Shown piece after piece: positions 36,350 to 43,913 of a stretch of DNA of 64,000 nucleotides. Source of the stretch: Calditrichia bacterium (lineage in GTDB: Bacteria; Calditrichota; Calditrichia; JAJRVZ01); contig CAVZSQ010000015.1 in NCBI GenBank assembly GCA_963777955.1, positions 160,001 through 224,000 on the forward strand. Direction: 5' to 3'. A program made the translations under genes and the position numbers. The number at the start of each line of letters is the position of its first letter. Position 1 is the first letter of the stretch. The notes under the pieces were generated by a model that was not told where the DNA came from, searched no databases, and worked only from the letters and a program-made list of their open reading frames with translations.

Positions 36350-37750
36350 TTATTTATTGGTTATGGACAGTTGTTTTAATTTTCTGCACAACCATTCCCT
36401 GCTGATTCCCGCCTCCTCGGCGGTCTTTTTCATATTCCAGTTATGCTTATTCAGCAGTTCGGTGAAGTATATTCTGTTGAATTCGTCAAGGGCCTTCGGA
36501 TGTTTGCTCTGCAAAATCGCATCGATCTCCCTGTGTCCGGTTATCCGGTTCCGGTTATGAAACTTGCGCTGTTGTTTGAAGCGTAAATCGGATGGATGTA
36601 TTATATTTCCGGTACAGAATACGAAAGCATCTTCAATGATATTCCTTAATTCACGGACATTTCCGGGAAAAGTATAATTTTTCAACTGGGCCAGGGCCGG
36701 ATTAGAAAGCACCAGTTGTTTATTGCGCTGGGTATTGAATTTTTCGAGAAAAAATAAAGCCAGCGGTTCAATATCTTCCGGGTGTTCACGCAGGGGCGGA
36801 ATGGTGATTTTAATGACGTTCAACCGGAAAAAAAGGTCTTCCCGGAATCTGTTACGATGTACGAGTTGTTCGATATCCCGGTTCGAGGCAGCCAGGATCA
36901 TGACATTGACGCGGATGGGGCGTTTACCGCCGATACGATAAATTTCTTTTTCTTCAAGTGCCCGCAGCAACACTCCTTGCAGCGGCATGGGCAGTTCACT
37001 GATTTCGTCCAGGAACAAAACACCTTCATGAGCCTGTTCGAATTTTCCCTGCCGGCTGGCATAGGCTCCGGTGAAAGCTCCCCGCTCATGCCCGAATAAC
37101 TCGCTTTCCAGGAGATTGTCCGGAATCGCAGCGCAGTTGATCGGTATGAAGGGGGCATAATTGCGTTTACTCAGCATATGGATAGTCCGGGCAAACAGGT
37201 CTTTACCGGATCCGCTTTCTCCTTCGATTAAACAGGTCGCATGGGCGTCCTCGGCGATCTTCAATACCTTGCCCATCAGTTCCTTGATTTGCCTGGACAG
37301 GCCGATTATCTGGTAGTCGTTGAATTGCTGGCGCACGGTCTGGCGCAATATCTCATTTTCAATGGTCAGATGCTGGAGTTCTTTCTTTCGTTTAATCAGA
37401 TTTTCAACGCGGATCATCAATTCATCGAGAGTGAATCCCTTGACAGCGAAATCATCGGCACCTGCCTGTATGGTGGCAACCGCATTTTCCACCGACTCAT
37501 ATGCAGTCATAGCCAGAATAAGCGGCCGGTACATTTGATTGCGGGCGCATTTGATTACCGCTAAACCGTCATTTGCTTCGGGAAACATCAGATCGATAAT
37601 CACTGCATCGAATTCATCAGTTTCAATAAAATTAAGAGCTTCCTCTTTGGTATCAGCGGTTATGATTTCGAGCCCCTCCTGTTCCTGCAAATGAAAGCGG
37701 ATACCTTTGAGGATCGTCTCGTCATCATCACCAATAAGAATCCGGTACAT
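36350..37750 (-). CDS. Sigma-54-dependent NtrC-family response regulator (receiver-AAA+-Fis HTH)
   Basis: Receiver DDD...IIDL; Walker A GESGSGKD; ESELFGHERGAFTGA; Walker B LFLDEI; FREDLFFRLNV; PGNVREL; HTH TAEEAGISREWL. Confidence 0.95.
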   Translation of the reverse strand: MYRILIGDDDETILKGIRFHLQEQEGLEIITADTKEEALNFIETDEFDAVIIDLMFPEANDGLAVIKCARNQMYRPLILAMTAYESVENAVATIQAGADDFAVKGFTLDELMIRVENLIKRKKELQHLTIENEILRQTVRQQFNDYQIIGLSRQIKELMGKVLKIAEDAHATCLIEGESGSGKDLFARTIHMLSKRNYAPFIPINCAAIPDNLLESELFGHERGAFTGAYASRQGKFEQAHEGVLFLDEISELPMPLQGVLLRALEEKEIYRIGGKRPIRVNVMILAASNRDIEQLVHRNRFREDLFFRLNVIKITIPPLREHPEDIEPLALFFLEKFNTQRNKQLVLSNPALAQLKNYTFPGNVRELRNIIEDAFVFCTGNIIHPSDLRFKQQRKFHNRNRITGHREIDAILQSKHPKALDEFNRIYFTELLNKHNWNMKKTAEEAGISREWLCRKLKQLSITNK

Positions 37751-37777
37751 ATGTTCTACCTTATCTGCTGATACTCG

Positions 37778-39160
37778 TTAAACCGGTAAAATGACCTTGA
37801 AGATGGAACCAACACCCGGTTGGCTGTCAACCTGGATTTCACCGCCATGCAGGTTAATGGTTCGTTTTACCATGGCCAGGCCCAGACCGTGCCCCTGGTT
37901 TTTCATAGAAAAAAACGGGCGGAAAATTGCCTGCAATTTTTCCTTAGGGATACCGCAGCCGGAATCGCTGACAATAATATAAATCTTTCCGGACCATTCC
38001 GTGCTGACCGATACTTCGCCCTTCTCCCGGGTTGCTTCCAGCGCATTCACAATGAGATTTTTTAGCGCCATGAATAACAGGCGGGGATCACCGTTAAATA
38101 TAGGTATATTAGGATCATAATTTCTATTTTTTATTACAGAATTGTGGTTGCTGACCTCGTCGATTGCCTTATTGACCAGGGTGTTGATATCAATAGCTTC
38201 CCTGTTCAATTCTGACGCTTTAGCCATATCCAGAGTCCGGCGTACAAAGACTTCAACCTTTTGCGAAGCCGAGAGGATTTCCTCGCTGTATTTACGTAAA
38301 GGACTGTTTTCCTCTAATCGTCGATTCAGTCCGTCCGCCAGCAAGTGGATTCCGGTCAGAGGATTTTTCAGGTCATGAATTATGTACGAGGCAAATTCGC
38401 CGATCATGATCAATCCCTCGTGGGCGCTGCGCTCATTAATCAGATTCACCAATTGAGCGGATAATTGATTCAGCGAATGAATCATCTGGCCGATTTCATC
38501 TTCACCGTAACCGGTGATGGCCTGATCGAATTTACCCTGGCCATAGGCCCGGGCCAGATTAGAAACAGCGGTAATCGGTTTAACCACCCGGCGGGCCAGA
38601 TAATATGAAAGAATTATACTGAAGATAATGGCCAGCAAACCTATACCGGCAATGGTACTGAAGAGTCCGGTAAACAGATTCTCAGCCAGATATTGAATGC
38701 GGACCGTACCGATTCGTCTATTCAATTGCAGCACGGGTACATAGGTTTCCCAGACAGTTTGATCGCGCTCATCGGTCAGACGCATGAGTTGCAGTTTGTC
38801 TGTCTGCATCGCCTGCACAGTTAATGAATCGCTACAGGTAATACCGCGTTGGCCGGGATCATCGGCGGCAATGACTTTTCCGCTGGAATCCAATAATACG
38901 ATGGATAAAATATCCCGGCTTTCCATCATGCTGTCGATCAATAACTGAATCACGGCATAGTCATCGAGCAGGATGGCATTTAAACTGGTATAGGCCAGAG
39001 TTTTAGCTAAACGGAATGCTTTATCTTCTGCCTGTTTGCGTATCGTATTCTGCTGAAATAAATAGATGGCCATGGAAATCAGCATAATAATCAATGCGGT
39101 CAGACCGGCAAAATAAAGGAAAAACTTCGAGCGCAATTTCAGCTTTTGCCAGATATTCAT
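37778..39160 (-). CDS. Sensor histidine kinase (2 TM, periplasmic domain, HAMP)
   Basis: HAMP VVKPI...DEIGQM; H-box IIHDLKNPL; N-box NLIVNALEA; DSGCGI; GHGLGL. Confidence 0.95.
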   Translation of the reverse strand: MNIWQKLKLRSKFFLYFAGLTALIIMLISMAIYLFQQNTIRKQAEDKAFRLAKTLAYTSLNAILLDDYAVIQLLIDSMMESRDILSIVLLDSSGKVIAADDPGQRGITCSDSLTVQAMQTDKLQLMRLTDERDQTVWETYVPVLQLNRRIGTVRIQYLAENLFTGLFSTIAGIGLLAIIFSIILSYYLARRVVKPITAVSNLARAYGQGKFDQAITGYGEDEIGQMIHSLNQLSAQLVNLINERSAHEGLIMIGEFASYIIHDLKNPLTGIHLLADGLNRRLEENSPLRKYSEEILSASQKVEVFVRRTLDMAKASELNREAIDINTLVNKAIDEVSNHNSVIKNRNYDPNIPIFNGDPRLLFMALKNLIVNALEATREKGEVSVSTEWSGKIYIIVSDSGCGIPKEKLQAIFRPFFSMKNQGHGLGLAMVKRTINLHGGEIQVDSQPGVGSIFKVILPV

Positions 39161-39165
39161 GATAT

Positions 39166-40659
39166 TTAATTGTGTTTATTCAATATAACTGAATTAAAGT
39201 CTAAAATTTGATATGGTGACATGGATATATGCTTGATCCTTTCTGAATCTACTGCGAAATGCGGTATAACATGGTCCAGAAAAACTGCCGGCGTCTCGGC
39301 CAGAATTATCGAGACGATTTCTTTGTAGATTTGATTTCGTTCGTTCATGTCATATTTAGTCTCGGCCAGGTCTAATAAACTATCGACCTTGGAATTATAA
39401 TACTTCAGTGAATTCGCCGGAGATTTCGAATGGAACAGTGTCCATAAAAAATACCAGGGATCGCCGATTATATCGCTGTCATAGGCGTCAAAAAACATCT
39501 GTGCACGATCCGACATAATTGCGCCTATATGTTGAGGCCAGTTTTCGGATTCTTCGGTCTGCAGATATATTCCCGAAGTACGCAACTGTGCTTTTAATAG
39601 TTCAATCCAGGTATGGCGGGAACTTTTATTGGATAGCAAGAAAAAGCGGGTAACCAGGTTACCCTGAAATCCAGCTTCCTTGAACATCTTGCGGGCGAGA
39701 GCGAGGTTCTGGCCTGCCTGGACCGCTGTCCCTAAATTATAAATGGGCGGTAGCGGTCCCACGGCTGGAATTGCATTCCCGCGGTTGGAGTTATAAACCA
39801 GCCGAGGAATATTCAAGGCATATAAAATAGCTTTACGTATACGGGGATCGTTAAAAGGGGCCGCCCGATTATTGAAGCCAATAAAAATTACGTTTAAGGG
39901 CTTATTCGACACATAGTCTATCTTGCCGGTCCATTTCAACCGGTCGATGATCGATCCTGAAATAAGATAAACAATATCTACTTCCCTGTCCTCAATCGCA
40001 TAGGCTGATGATTCATAGTTGCTGTACAGAATGAATTCAATCTTTTTTACCTGTGATAATTTCTGCCAGCATTCCGGATTCTGTTTGAGGATTATTCTGG
40101 TACTGCCTTGCTGCTCATGTATAAAATAAGGGCCGGTTCCGTTACGGTTTTTATTTTTTTCTGTCATTGGCGATTGAATCAGCATGACATAAGGCGAACA
40201 CAGCGCATATAAAAACGGAGCAAAATCATTCTTTAACTGTATTGCAAAAGTCAGGGAATCAATCACGGCTACCTTTTTAATCCGGCCCTGCAGTAACCAA
40301 TTACTTTTTTCGCTGCGGTAGCGTTCTATGCTGTAGAGAATATCATCCACACTCAGCTGATGCCCGTCCTGGAAACGGACATCAGGCCTGAGTGTGAAAC
40401 GATAGATATTACTGTCAGGATTGACGGTCCAGCGCATAGCCAGATTGGGTAAAATAGTCTGGTAATCTGAATCCAACCGTAACAGGGTTTCATAAATCTG
40501 GCTTTGGATTTGCACATCATAAACCCCGTCATGATAGACCGGGTCAAATCCGTGTGGCATCTCCTCGATAGCCATGCGGATAGTTTCCACATCTGCGCAT
40601 GTCCAGGCCAGGACACTACTGCTAATAAATAAAAATATTTTCGTTATTTTTACTTTCAC
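39166..40659 (-). CDS. Family-5 (DppA/OppA-like) extracellular solute-binding protein
   Basis: Signal peptide ending in Cys; QIYETLL..PNLAMRW, FTLRPDVRFQDG, GTGPY, PFNDPRIRKAI.YALN; no permease or ATPase nearby. Confidence 0.9.
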   Translation of the reverse strand: MKVKITKIFLFISSSVLAWTCADVETIRMAIEEMPHGFDPVYHDGVYDVQIQSQIYETLLRLDSDYQTILPNLAMRWTVNPDSNIYRFTLRPDVRFQDGHQLSVDDILYSIERYRSEKSNWLLQGRIKKVAVIDSLTFAIQLKNDFAPFLYALCSPYVMLIQSPMTEKNKNRNGTGPYFIHEQQGSTRIILKQNPECWQKLSQVKKIEFILYSNYESSAYAIEDREVDIVYLISGSIIDRLKWTGKIDYVSNKPLNVIFIGFNNRAAPFNDPRIRKAILYALNIPRLVYNSNRGNAIPAVGPLPPIYNLGTAVQAGQNLALARKMFKEAGFQGNLVTRFFLLSNKSSRHTWIELLKAQLRTSGIYLQTEESENWPQHIGAIMSDRAQMFFDAYDSDIIGDPWYFLWTLFHSKSPANSLKYYNSKVDSLLDLAETKYDMNERNQIYKEIVSIILAETPAVFLDHVIPHFAVDSERIKHISMSPYQILDFNSVILNKHN

Positions 40660-40721
40660 CTACCAACAAATATTTTTAAGTATACACGACTATCATTTTA
40701 CTAATGCTGGAGAGCCTGTTT

Positions 40722-40841
40722 CTACTCAATCGTACGTGCGGCTATTCTCTGACATTGAGCCAGCACTTGTGGTGTAAAAGTAACGAACATGAAAAGCAGA
40801 ATCCATGCTTTTTTGATCCGGCGAAATAATTTCTTGTACAT
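40722..40841 (-). CDS. Small secreted peptide, candidate precursor: MYKKLFRRIKKAWILLFMFVTFTPQVLAQCQRIAARTIE (39 aa; below the ORF-track cut-off)
   Basis: Translated by hand; AAGGAGGT SD (40846-40853) 4 nt before ATG; basic n-region, hydrophobic h-region, P-Q-V-L-A c-region; co-oriented between the radical SAM and binding-protein genes. Confidence 0.75.
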   Translation of the reverse strand: MYKKLFRRIKKAWILLFMFVTFTPQVLAQCQRIAARTIE

Positions 40842-40877
40842 ATAAACCTCCTTGTTTAGATGGGTTAAAATGTTAAA

Positions 40878-42273
40878 TTAATTTTTGGATATCTTCAGCA
40901 GTTGTCTGCTAAAATTATTTCTAAGTCCGGCTGCAGGTCTGCTGTGCGACCGGTTTGAGAGATTTTTTTTCCAGCCGGAAAATTTCTTATAAATTTTATT
41001 TTCCAGCCGGGCCAGTTTCAGGCGCCAGGCGGTCAATTTTTTCAGACGAAAATCGTAGCCGTCGTACCAGTGATCAGAGGTTAACAGACCCGCCTGCTTA
41101 TATTGTCGGTAAGACAAACTGCCCCGGTACAATTCCAATCGTTCATTGATGGAAATCCTGCAATTCTTACTGTTGAAATATTTTTTCTGGACCATGAATA
41201 ACACGAAGTACTGTTTGATCAGATCGCGCAGGCGGGTATAAGCGTCAGCCAGGATCACCGAGACGATACAATCAATTTTCAACCGCTTTAAAGTGATCAA
41301 GGCCTTCAGATTCTGCCGTACCGTGGTTCCCTTGCCAAAACGGTTCAGTTGATCCTGATCGAAAGACTCAACCCCCAGAAAAACACGTTGTAAACCTGAT
41401 CTTTTAAGATGTATCAAGACCTGGCGATCGATTGAATCCACCCGGCACATCATTTCAAAACTGACCGACAGGTTCCGCCGGGCCAGTTCGGCGGCCAGAA
41501 TTTCGGCACGTTGACGGTTGTGTACGCCGCGGGTTAAGAAATTATCATCATTCAGAATGAAATAGGTGCAGCGATAAGTTCTGGCCAGGTGCTCCAGTTC
41601 ATCTACAAATTTTGCGATGGAACGGCTGCGCCATTTTTTACCCGGACTGCTGGTGTAAAAAGAATTGATGTCGCAAAATGAACAATTCCCCCAGCAACCC
41701 CGCGAAGCATAAACCCGCAGGTGACCTGTTTTTTTAATCAGCCTGTCGGCATATTTGCGATCGACCATGGGCAGACTGTCCAGATCGTAAATAAGGGGCC
41801 GGGGAGGATTATGCCGCAACTGCCCATTAAGACTGATATGAAATTCCCGGAATCCCGGTCAGAGGTTTATGGCCCCGACCTGCAAGGGAATACATCAAGT
41901 CCAGCAGGGTATACTCCCCTTCTCCACGTACAATAAAATCGATGGCAGGTACATTTTTTAAAAGTTCATCGGCATGAAAAGTTGGGAAATATCCACCAGC
42001 TAGCACAGGTCCGCTGAAACCGGTCTGTTTTATCTGTTGAATCAAGGACAGCCCCTGCTCTTTAGTCTGATCCAGCATGGAAATCCCAATAGATTTTGGT
42101 TGTATGTGACGCATTTTTTGTATGACAGCCGGGATATCCAGATCTTCCAGTACCATATCCAAGGTGTCAACCTTGAAACCGTATTGAGTAAGAAAGGCCT
42201 TCAAACTGGCAATACCCAGATGTTCACTGATAACATCGCTCTTAACACCAGGATGAATTAACAAGAGATCCAT
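40878..42273 (-). CDS. Cobalamin-binding radical SAM enzyme (class B type), split by a frameshift at ~41826
   Basis: B12-binding N-domain (HLGIASLKAFL, IGIS, AGGYFPT, FIVRGEGE); rSAM domain SRGCWGNCSFC (CxxxCxxC), DDNF, CRVD, FLGVES; start at ATG 42273 after AGAGGG. Confidence 0.9.
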
Positions 42274-42304
42274 AATAATCCCTCTAAAAGATGAAAAATA
42301 CATA

Positions 42305-42320
42305 TGCCATATTCATGCCA
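42305..42320 (-). promoter_or_regulatory. Sigma-54 (-24/-12) promoter of the radical SAM operon
   Basis: Minus strand TGGCATGAATATGGCA, GG-N10-GC, versus consensus TGGCACG-N4-TTGC; predicted +1 ~42294, 21 nt before the ATG. Confidence 0.75.
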
Positions 42321-42403
42321 TTTTATTGTAAAAACGACAACTCCAATAATATGAAGTAGTTAGCCAATCCAGGCTTTCGAGCATAAATTATAAGATCAAA
42401 AAA

Positions 42404-42489
42404 AGTGTGAACGATCGATCAAAAAAATTGACCGATCGTTCACACTCGGTATGAACAATCGGTCAAAAAATGAGAACAATCGTTCACAC
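42404..42489. promoter_or_regulatory. Four phased imperfect palindromes (consensus GTGTGAAC-N4-GTTCACAC), candidate enhancer sites
   Basis: gtgtgaacgatcgatca, ttgaccgatcgttcacac, gtatgaacaatcggtca, tgagaacaatcgttcacac; centres at 42413, 42434, 42457, 42478 (21/23/21 bp apart). Confidence 0.7.
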
Positions 42490-42828
42490 GGATGGGAAGT
42501 CCCGCACTTTTTTGCAACTTTTTTGAGATAAAGCTGAATATACGATATTAGAAATTCGGCTCTTCACTGATATTTTGAGTTGTTTTTGCAGTTCAAAGAA
42601 TGCTCTCGGTCAATTCCAGGGCAAAATAATTCTTGTATATAAATATTTAATAAACAATATCTTATATATTTATTGTCTTATCGGCGATTTAAAAATTCCG
42701 GGAAAAATTAAAACGATTCAATGGAGCAGATATCTATCCGAAGGGCTTAAAAAAAATTATAAATTTTTTTCAAAATATTTAATAAAAATTAGATCAATTT
42801 AATCGCTTAACTTCCGGTAAACTTAAGC

Positions 42829-42850
42829 AGTGTGAACTTTTGTTCACACT
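42829..42850. repeat. Perfect palindrome AGTGTGAAC-TTTT-GTTCACACT (fifth copy of the motif)
   Basis: Direct reading; same half-sites as 42404-42489. Confidence 0.7.
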
Positions 42851-42898: not shown

Positions 42899-43889
42899 TT
42901 AAATAACCCCGCCAATGAGATAAGGTTGGAACTTGTCGGCTTTAATCAGCCTGTAAATTGCCTCAGTATCCACTGCCCTGACAATAAAGACCAGGCCGAT
43001 CCCCAAATTAAAGGTATTGCGCATATCTGATTCAGGGACCTGGCCCAGACGCTTTATCATCTTGAATATCGGAGGCCAGGACCAGGCCTGCCAATCTACC
43101 TGCAGTGATAATCCTGCCGGTAACAGGCGTTTGGTATTACCTATGATGCCACCACCGGTAATATGGGCTATCCCTTTAACCTGAACCCTTTTTCGTACAG
43201 ATTGGATCAGGTGAAGATAACTCAAATGGACCTGTAACAATTCAGCGCCCAAAGTACACCCCAGCTCGGGAATATAACTATCCACTTTTAATTTTTTAAG
43301 CAATATCCTGCGGGCCAGGGAATAGCCATTGGTATGTAAACCGCTGGAATTAACTCCGACCAATACATCTCCCCTTTTTATTTTTTTACCGTTAATGATA
43401 TTCAGCTTTTTCTACCACACCGATAATGGTACCCGACAGATCATATTCGCCCTGGCGGTACAGGTCGGGCATCTCCGCTGTCTCGCCGCCGATCAGGGCG
43501 CAATGATTATACTTACAACCGCGTACAAAACCTTTAATTACATTTTTAAAAGTTGCTGTTTCTAATTTTCCGGTGGCGAAATAATCCAGGAAAAAAAGCG
43601 GCTGCGCTCCGCCCACGGCAATATCGTTGACGCAATGATTTACTAAATCCTGGCCGATCGTATCATGTTTATCCATCAGGATAGCGACTTTTAATTTGGT
43701 CCCCACGCCATCCACGCTGGAGACCAGCACCGGTTGCCGGTACATACCCTTGTTGAAACTATACATTCCCCCAAAAAGACCCAGTTCAGTCAATACCTGG
43801 CGGCTATAGGTGGAATGAACCATTTTTTTAATCTGTTTTATGGCCAGGTTCCCCTTTTCGATGTCAACACCCGCCTTACGATAAGTCAT
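42899..43889 (-). CDS. purM: Phosphoribosylformylglycinamidine cyclo-ligase, frameshifted in T5 run 43407-43411
   Basis: TYRKAGVDI, DGVGTK, NHCVND, GGETAEMP, SSGLHTNGYSL, AHITGGG, TFNLGIG. Confidence 0.95.
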
Positions 43890-43913
43890 TTTCACCTGCA
43901 GTATCCTCAGCAA

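Follow-up and report, generated by a model that had tools for sequence, protein, structure and literature searches.

What would unite, in one operon, a B12-dependent radical S-adenosylmethionine (SAM) enzyme, a 39-residue peptide, a solute-binding protein without a transporter, a sensor histidine kinase, together with a sigma-54 activator? Five such units, all of them on the minus strand, fill the interval from purM to plsY, separated by gaps of 36, 62, 5 and 27 nt, in a 64,000-nucleotide stretch of Calditrichia bacterium DNA (GenBank assembly GCA_963777955.1, contig CAVZSQ010000015.1, positions 160,001 to 224,000), which we call the window and number from its first letter. The source genome is 4.24 Mb in size and 91.8% complete. 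A preliminary description, made from the letters of the window, had read the locus as a candidate self-inducing modified-peptide signalling circuit. We arrive at a related answer: on balance, it is probable that the operon encodes a self-inducing peptide signal that is read by the binding protein together with the kinase. As a whole, the earlier interpretation is partly supported, with a divergent peptide/binding-protein block and co-variation of the activator helix with its palindromes adding two new lines for a signalling loop. Sequence comparison shows the gene order, the coding constraint on the peptide, the promoter layout, the helix-site co-variation and the divergent block.

In the mechanism we propose, the B12 radical SAM enzyme would modify the 39-residue precursor, which, after export, would be cleaved around residue 25-28. 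The freed tail would bind the transporter-less family-5 binding protein, and the loaded binding protein would prompt the kinase to pass phosphate to the sigma-54 activator, which in turn would bind the tandem palindromes and drive the promoter of its own operon. The peptide would fit its binding protein as a key fits a lock, and strains would exchange the two together as a block; each strain would thereby have a dialect of its own, on an enzyme and a kinase that hardly change.

The 39-residue peptide

The gene for the predicted signal precursor (40722..40841, minus strand) is preceded by a GGAGG ribosome site. A peptide profile searched against 86 phylum genomes and the fetched loci gave matches in 23 of the 86; those in 21 genomes were accepted as real, and those in G067 and G001 were dropped as weak, partial and lying within long frames. 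No Pfam family matches the open reading frame (ORF). For codons 12-39, nonsynonymous divergence (pN) was lower than synonymous divergence (pS) in all ten pairs computed, which argues that the peptide ORF is a real gene under purifying selection. Among 23 metagenome loci, some of which are copies of genomes already counted, 21 contain the peptide with its ribosome site, and the remaining two contigs stop before the expected position.

A set of 36 distinct peptides of 38-40 residues was compared (two 36-residue copies were excluded), 33 of them exactly 39 residues long. A basic, amphipathic segment (residues 2-12) is followed by a hydrophobic one (13-24), by mostly Gly, Pro or Ala at 24-25 and by a weakly amphipathic tail; the window peptide has a basic amphipathic start, a hydrophobic middle, a Gly/Pro hinge and an 11-residue tail. 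Residue classes are kept at F17 (33/36), T/S21 (36/36), N/R32 (32/36) and I/L/V38 (36/36). The preliminary description had spoken of a tiny secreted peptide. The n/h/c layout that this implies is conserved, whereas a fixed cleavage site is not found, and secretion remains a prediction. Signal peptides and cleavage were assessed by a heuristic of our own; in the window, cleavage after residue 28 would free QCQRIAARTIE. Signal peptidase I is present in the genome. A complex prediction for the binding protein with peptide residues 10-39 scored 0.02 (mark 0.32) and was used neither for nor against the proposal. A sequencing-run search gave no RNA run among the matches listed.

A divergent peptide/binding-protein block in close strains

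Three close strains carry three versions of the peptide and its neighbour. In genomes G025 (locus L023) and G031 (L025) and in the metagenome contig L163, the enzymes are 92-99% identical, whereas the first ~400 residues of the binding proteins are only 48-58% identical and the peptides diverge after residue 11. The divergent block starts at peptide codon 12 and takes in the greater part of the binding protein. At the DNA level, identity between L023 and L163 is 94-100% as far as peptide codon 11 and 52-69% beyond it; pS between them is 0.67 for the peptide and 0.70 for the binding protein, near saturation, as against 0.08 for the enzyme. L023 and L025 differ over the same block, with ~90% identity regained over the final ~100 residues of the binding protein and 95% identity between the two kinases. 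In a control pair (L158 and L159) the peptides are similar (91-100% by segment) and the binding proteins 80% identical. The sharp edges of the block point to exchange by recombination.

A wider comparison was made over 19 loci with all parts present, among which kin are not independent. Peptide residues 13-39 track the binding protein with a partial r of 0.42 (permutation p 0.0005, inflated by kinship; 0.43 without L025), and show a partial r of -0.09 with the kinase and a weak 0.14 with the enzyme. The divergence in the close strains suggests that their peptide and binding-protein genes form one exchanged block underlying strain-specific signalling. We consider it likely that the peptide is the ligand of the binding protein.

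Toxin-immunity pairs also vary as blocks, and the peptide could instead be a membrane-active antimicrobial that induces its own operon, as nisin and EpeX do, with the binding protein serving as immunity factor and sensor. Its first 11 residues do form a strongly cationic amphipathic helix (net charge +5.3, moment 0.85). However, this cationic part is identical across the three strains while the variable tail is nearly neutral, no exporter or membrane immunity gene was found in the mapped loci, and the predicted outputs described below are signalling and secreted proteins. An antimicrobial role is, in our view, quite improbable.

Promoter, palindromes and activator

The predicted sigma-54 promoter is a -24/-12 element of the GG-N10-GC pattern (42305..42320, minus strand). 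Upstream of it lie four tandem 18-bp palindromes with a spacing of 21-23 bp (42406..42488), the predicted enhancer sites of the operon's own activator, and a distal single palindrome of the TGTGAA-N6-TTCACA type (42831..42848), the top-scoring site of the genome. The promoter and palindrome array reported earlier upstream of the operon could thus both be located, and nowhere else in the 4.24 Mb of the genome does the motif form a tandem array. Using a relaxed pattern, a sigma-54-like site was found in 36 of 37 distinct upstream regions. Tandem palindromes precede the sigma-54 site in 28 of the 37, compared with 1 of 1850 shuffles, most of them at about -103 and -124 relative to that site; several relatives have distal extra palindromes too. 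Genome-wide, the tandem pattern occurs in 21 of the 86 genomes, namely 19 of the 28 with the cassette and 2 of the 58 without it, although in its strict form it misses the source genome itself. A reversed control pattern was found in none of the 86.

The last gene of the operon (36350..37750, minus strand) encodes an NtrC-type activator consisting, by Pfam, of a receiver, an AAA+ domain and a Fis-type helix-turn-helix; the GAFTGA motif noted in the preliminary description sits at residue 224. The locus and genome hold the features of an NtrC-type sigma-54 system: receiver, AAA+ domain with GAFTGA, helix-turn-helix, -24/-12 promoter, tandem upstream sites and rpoN. In 22 of 25 complete copies the recognition helix has the residues REW. 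The three activators that depart from this (in G055, G056 and G077) have no canonical tandem site, and in G056 the palindrome is altered symmetrically, in both halves. That the activator binds the tandem palindromes and drives its own operon is, on these comparisons, highly likely.

Palindromes are also bound by global regulators, for example CRP (N6 spacer), Rex (N4) and LexA (GAAC-N4-GTTC); this assignment was rejected because tandem copies are almost confined to cassette genomes and are phased to sigma-54 sites. Two of the window palindromes form a hairpin with a T-run that could terminate purM transcription, which may be a side role of the palindromes but leaves the relatives unexplained. 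No excess of sigma-70 promoters was seen (13 found, 15.2 expected). At L118 (G077), where the activator helix is changed and no canonical palindrome precedes the enzyme gene, inspection by eye suggests a different inverted repeat.

Around further sites in the relatives, 26 of 30 regions contain a sigma-54-like site within 330 bases, a count made without a shuffle control. Among the predicted targets are a stand-alone receiver, found in 12 genomes and in many cases with a PAS kinase after it, and varied proteins, many with signal-peptide-like starts. In relatives, the output is likely to consist of the stand-alone receiver with its PAS hybrid kinase and of varied, often secreted proteins. By far the most tandem-site matches of any genome, 21 at about a dozen places (L026, L126, L197-L205), occur in G007, mostly before unannotated genes, and would represent an expanded regulon. 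G050, an 87% complete genome, gave no match to the cassette, yet has a lipoprotein-like gene preceded by three tandem sites and a sigma-54-like site (L216, G050:C234:1641). Upstream of the operon in G004 (L031; G004:C11:110394-110649), two tandem arrays stand between divergent sigma-54-like sites, and a series of small genes on the opposite strand may be under the control of the activator there as well.

Binding protein and kinase

The predicted receptor (39166..40659, minus strand) is a family-5 solute-binding protein (PF00496) that is DppA-like by profile. The position of DppA Asp408 is occupied by Asp or Glu in 23 of 26 homologues and that of Trp405 by Trp or Tyr in 21 of 26, with variable neighbouring loops; we take both residues to have functional roles in DppA. 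It is the sole family-5 match in the genome. The OppB/OppC N-domains PF12911 and PF19300 were not found in the genome at its 91.8% completeness, while positive controls match in 11 of 14 each. No Opp/Dpp permease was found in the genome, in keeping with the orphan, transporter-less binding protein of the earlier reading.

The kinase (37778..39160, minus strand) has two membrane helices, a single Cache-type domain, HAMP, HisKA and HATPase domains by Pfam, and its H-box at residue 262. The binding protein very probably works with the operon kinase. The long binding-protein matches scanned (7 and 19) proved to be multi-domain repeats and no fusions with this kinase.

An early Cys, within the first 55 residues, is present in 24 of 26 binding proteins, which makes the protein a likely lipoprotein. 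Such anchoring would also fit a private loop, in which the peptide is kept in the cell's own periplasm and reports the activity of the oxygen-sensitive B12 enzyme, as a cobalamin or anoxia switch; the mapped loci likewise hold no outer-membrane channel gene. Old, divergent versions of peptide and receptor among close strains would, however, bring no clear benefit to a private sensor, and we rate this alternative as improbable to the same degree as an antimicrobial.

The B12 radical SAM enzyme

The enzyme combines a B12-binding domain with a CxxxCxxC radical SAM domain, the features of its superfamily, intact in relatives and split by one base in the window. A model from an intact relative (predicted local distance difference test score 93.8) has OxsB as its closest solved structure (Z 36.4, root-mean-square deviation 3.2, 429 aligned residues, 25% identity). 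CysS (Z 30.7), MgmA (30.1), TsrM (29.5) and TokK (23.0) follow, with AprD4 among the neighbours, at identities of at most 25%. Structural matches of this kind fix the superfamily and not the reaction. The intact relative falls below the cut-offs for B12 methyltransferases acting on RiPPs (peptides synthesised by the ribosome and modified post-translationally) of the PoyC/rSAM_ocin_1/ApyD/TsrM kind, with 105.9 against 281.85 (TIGR03975) and 100.1 against 750 (ApyD), and none of the operon proteins reaches an NCBIfam family cut-off. Among the best 120 of 263 matches, about 110 full-length sequence clusters form a tight, uncharacterised family, beyond which distant ones follow at 35-38% identity; of the relatives outside it that carry a name, the nearest is P0120, a KSB1-labelled enzyme at 38% identity.

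Adjacency and joint duplication tie the enzyme to the peptide. Modification of the peptide by the enzyme is, we think, reasonably probable. Its most likely form would be C-methylation at a conserved position (aliphatic 38, Asn/Arg 32 or Thr/Ser 21), a guess from the usual chemistry of the enzyme's family. An enzyme that stays constant while the tail varies would need the constant peptide start or a conserved residue as its target.

Several observations weigh against a self-inducing peptide signal. Only residue classes are kept among the 36 peptides, with no invariant modifiable residue. In hydrophobicity they lie on the border of signal peptides and membrane anchors, and the -3/-1 rule is satisfied somewhere at 24-30 in 29 of 36 and after residue 28 in 17 of 36. 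The mapped loci hold no dedicated exporter, protease or outer-membrane channel gene. The enzyme's nearest fold is OxsB, which acts on a small molecule; on our reading of its secondary structure, the model shows no extra leader-binding domain of the kind of a RiPP recognition element, and the enzyme is constant in the three close strains while the peptide varies. Clean block exchange is known from one trio, one member of which is a metagenome contig. In the source genome, finally, neither a second tandem site nor a clear orthologue of the receiver that lies downstream in relatives (best 33%) was found.

Some of these points would suit a small membrane protein acting as adaptor or brake on the binding protein or kinase, after the model of MgrB and SafA, with the enzyme making a small-molecule signal from a metabolite. 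The near-fixed length, the basic inside end with an uncharged run of 14-24 residues, the lack of a fixed cleavage site and the OxsB-like fold are in line with such an adaptor, and direct contact would likewise make peptide and binding protein co-vary. The mean hydropathy of the best 19-residue window is merely 0.9-2.1, however, and tandem duplication of the peptide and its joint duplication with the enzyme suit a substrate better. It would also be left unexplained why a 99% identical enzyme, producing the same molecule, is paired with a 48% identical binding protein. We regard the adaptor as unlikely.

Distribution of the cassette

The cassette is present in 28 of the 86 phylum genomes (enzyme in 25, kinase in 27, either in 28), spread over five of the eight families of the phylum; the record titles of family-level relatives read Calditrichota. 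Gene order, small ORF, sigma-54 site and palindromes all recur in relatives, bearing out the recurrence that the preliminary description had put forward as a check. In most loci the peptide gene lies directly 3' of the enzyme gene; a receiver gene intervenes in G055 and G056, and an assembly gap in G036. Enzyme and peptide are duplicated jointly in G048, and the peptide gene is in tandem duplicate in G056.

A genome-collection scan with generic patterns gave three family members among the 80 loci listed. The other 77 showed no convincing peptide match (best E-value 0.42) and no family-level binding protein or kinase. Among 151 genomes around other-phylum loci (two overlapping samples) there was no enzyme match at 1e-85, in a search without a positive control.

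Individual loci show further variation. L123 (G056) and L124 (G055) have two divergent stand-alone receiver genes either side of the peptide gene or genes, and a short upstream remnant resembling a peptide start. L120 (2459-6033) and L171 have two copies each of enzyme and peptide; the first of the peptides has 36 residues and ends in WIES, and the sigma-54 site and palindromes precede the second enzyme copy. In L031 (G004:C11:105575-108482) many stops mark the binding-protein gene as decayed, and stops occur in the kinase match too, while enzyme, peptide, activator and sites are intact; G004 is possibly a signal-making but deaf strain, or else the product of an assembly error.

A break in the enzyme gene of the window

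The co-oriented genes, their place between purM and plsY and the gaps between them are as the preliminary description gave them, but its single open frame for the radical SAM gene did not hold: the assembly has this gene in two frames. The N-terminal, B12-binding half (41827..42273, minus strand; PF02310) ends at a one-base break at ~41831-41833, and the C-terminal, radical SAM half (40878..41819, minus strand; PF04055) has its CxxxCxxC motif intact when aligned with intact relatives. The gene is intact in all nine full-length relatives aligned. Because six of six related-strain contigs spanning the break, from five runs, have one base fewer at 41831-41833, the break is probably an assembly error, the contigs compared being from relatives and not from this strain. 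The neighbouring purM (42899-43913) is also in two frames, and a 206-base near-identical contig is one base shorter at 43403, which points to indel errors in this assembly. No indel was seen across the peptide gene in the related-strain contigs.

The break could instead be a true recent mutation, so that a system genuine elsewhere in the phylum would no longer work in this strain. The two frames are what the assembly contains, the contigs without the extra base come from relatives at roughly 87-95% identity, and decay does occur, as the many stops in the G004 binding-protein gene illustrate. Against this, all six relative contigs agree, purM next door shows a like excess of one base over a near-identical contig, and neither the promoter nor any of the four remaining genes is damaged. 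We judge a dead system rather unlikely, an estimate made separately from those for the other alternatives.

Comparison with known systems

Peptide autoinduction with strain dialects is textbook knowledge for Gram-positive bacteria. A self-inducing signal at this locus, if real, would be a fully encoded case of it in an outer-membrane phylum. Tentatively, and with slightly more doubt than confidence, we propose a new class of quorum sensing in outer-membrane bacteria, in which a B12 radical SAM-modified, Sec-exported pheromone is read through a repurposed peptide-binding lipoprotein, a specificity module that could be interchanged while the kinase stays constant, so that a dialect would change by a swap of only the peptide tail and binding protein. 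Three peptide/receptor versions on near-identical enzymes, 36 peptide variants and a defined promoter and site make up a natural test set, and a receptor swappable on a constant kinase would, if the proposal is true, be a useful orthogonal signalling part. No description of this operon was found among the literature matches listed, with subscription papers outside the scope. This agrees with the earlier remark that the combination was not one recognised as described, and the defining features of no known family were found in it.

Genes for kinase-stimulating binding proteins are found together with signalling genes, CBP-ChiS being a family-5 case, according to the accessible part of one source (PMC8050422). 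The window operon resembles CBP-ChiS, LuxP-LuxQ, TorT-TorS and AioX-AioS in having a binding protein among signalling genes and a Cache-type sensor; that of AioS, as far as the accessible text goes, is a single Cache-like domain. It differs in that the ligands listed for those systems are sugars, autoinducer-2, trimethylamine N-oxide, arsenite and citrate, with no same-operon peptide ligand found in the accessible part of that source (PMC8050422).

As far as the partly accessible source describes them, the streptococcal radical SAM RiPPs (RaS-RiPPs) of SHP/Rgg systems likewise place a radical SAM enzyme beside a short peptide and are tied to peptide signalling. Their enzymes are of the SPASM type, and a separate pheromone is read by cytoplasmic Rgg. 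The window operon has instead a B12 enzyme, one peptide and a predicted extracytoplasmic receptor. Pfam found no SPASM domain in it, and the geopeptide maturase model TIGR04280 stayed below cut-off genome-wide, with no match at this locus. OxsB, MgmA, TsrM, CysS and TokK share the enzyme's two-domain fold, but at no more than 25% identity and with no NCBIfam cut-off reached here.

In Bacillus, ComQXPA comprises an enzyme-modified secreted peptide, a kinase and a regulator, with strain-specific pherotypes. In contrast, the operon described here has neither a prenyltransferase nor a conserved Trp, and has a B12 radical SAM enzyme and a binding protein as predicted receptor. Staphylococcal agr is similar in being a single self-inducing operon of modifying enzyme, peptide precursor, kinase and regulator, self-induction being predicted in our case. 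Its variable agrBDC region is internally linked, unlinked to agrA and exchanged by rare recombination, as the accessible part of the source reports (PMC8768832). The variable peptide-plus-sensor block within conserved flanks is matched here by one trio and the 19-locus partial correlation. An agr-like ThiF peptide system is described for lactic acid bacteria in the accessible portion of a preprint (10.1101/2024.05.13.593846). Unlike agr, the operon has no AgrB peptidase (PF04647), which was not found in this genome at 91.8% completeness either, and its 36 peptides have no conserved Cys, a near-neutral tail and no Pfam or NCBIfam peptide family, whereas the AgrD core has a conserved Cys or Ser for the thiolactone and an acidic tail. 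A two-helix Cache kinase and an NtrC-type regulator stand in place of the AgrC membrane sensor and a LytTR regulator, the variable partner is a separate binding protein with kinase and enzyme constant, the output is through sigma-54, and the host has an outer membrane. The defining features of agr and ComQXPA, as of RaS-RiPP and geopeptide systems, are absent; by its predicted logic the operon would nonetheless work like agr or ComQXPA, with parts shared by no known family.

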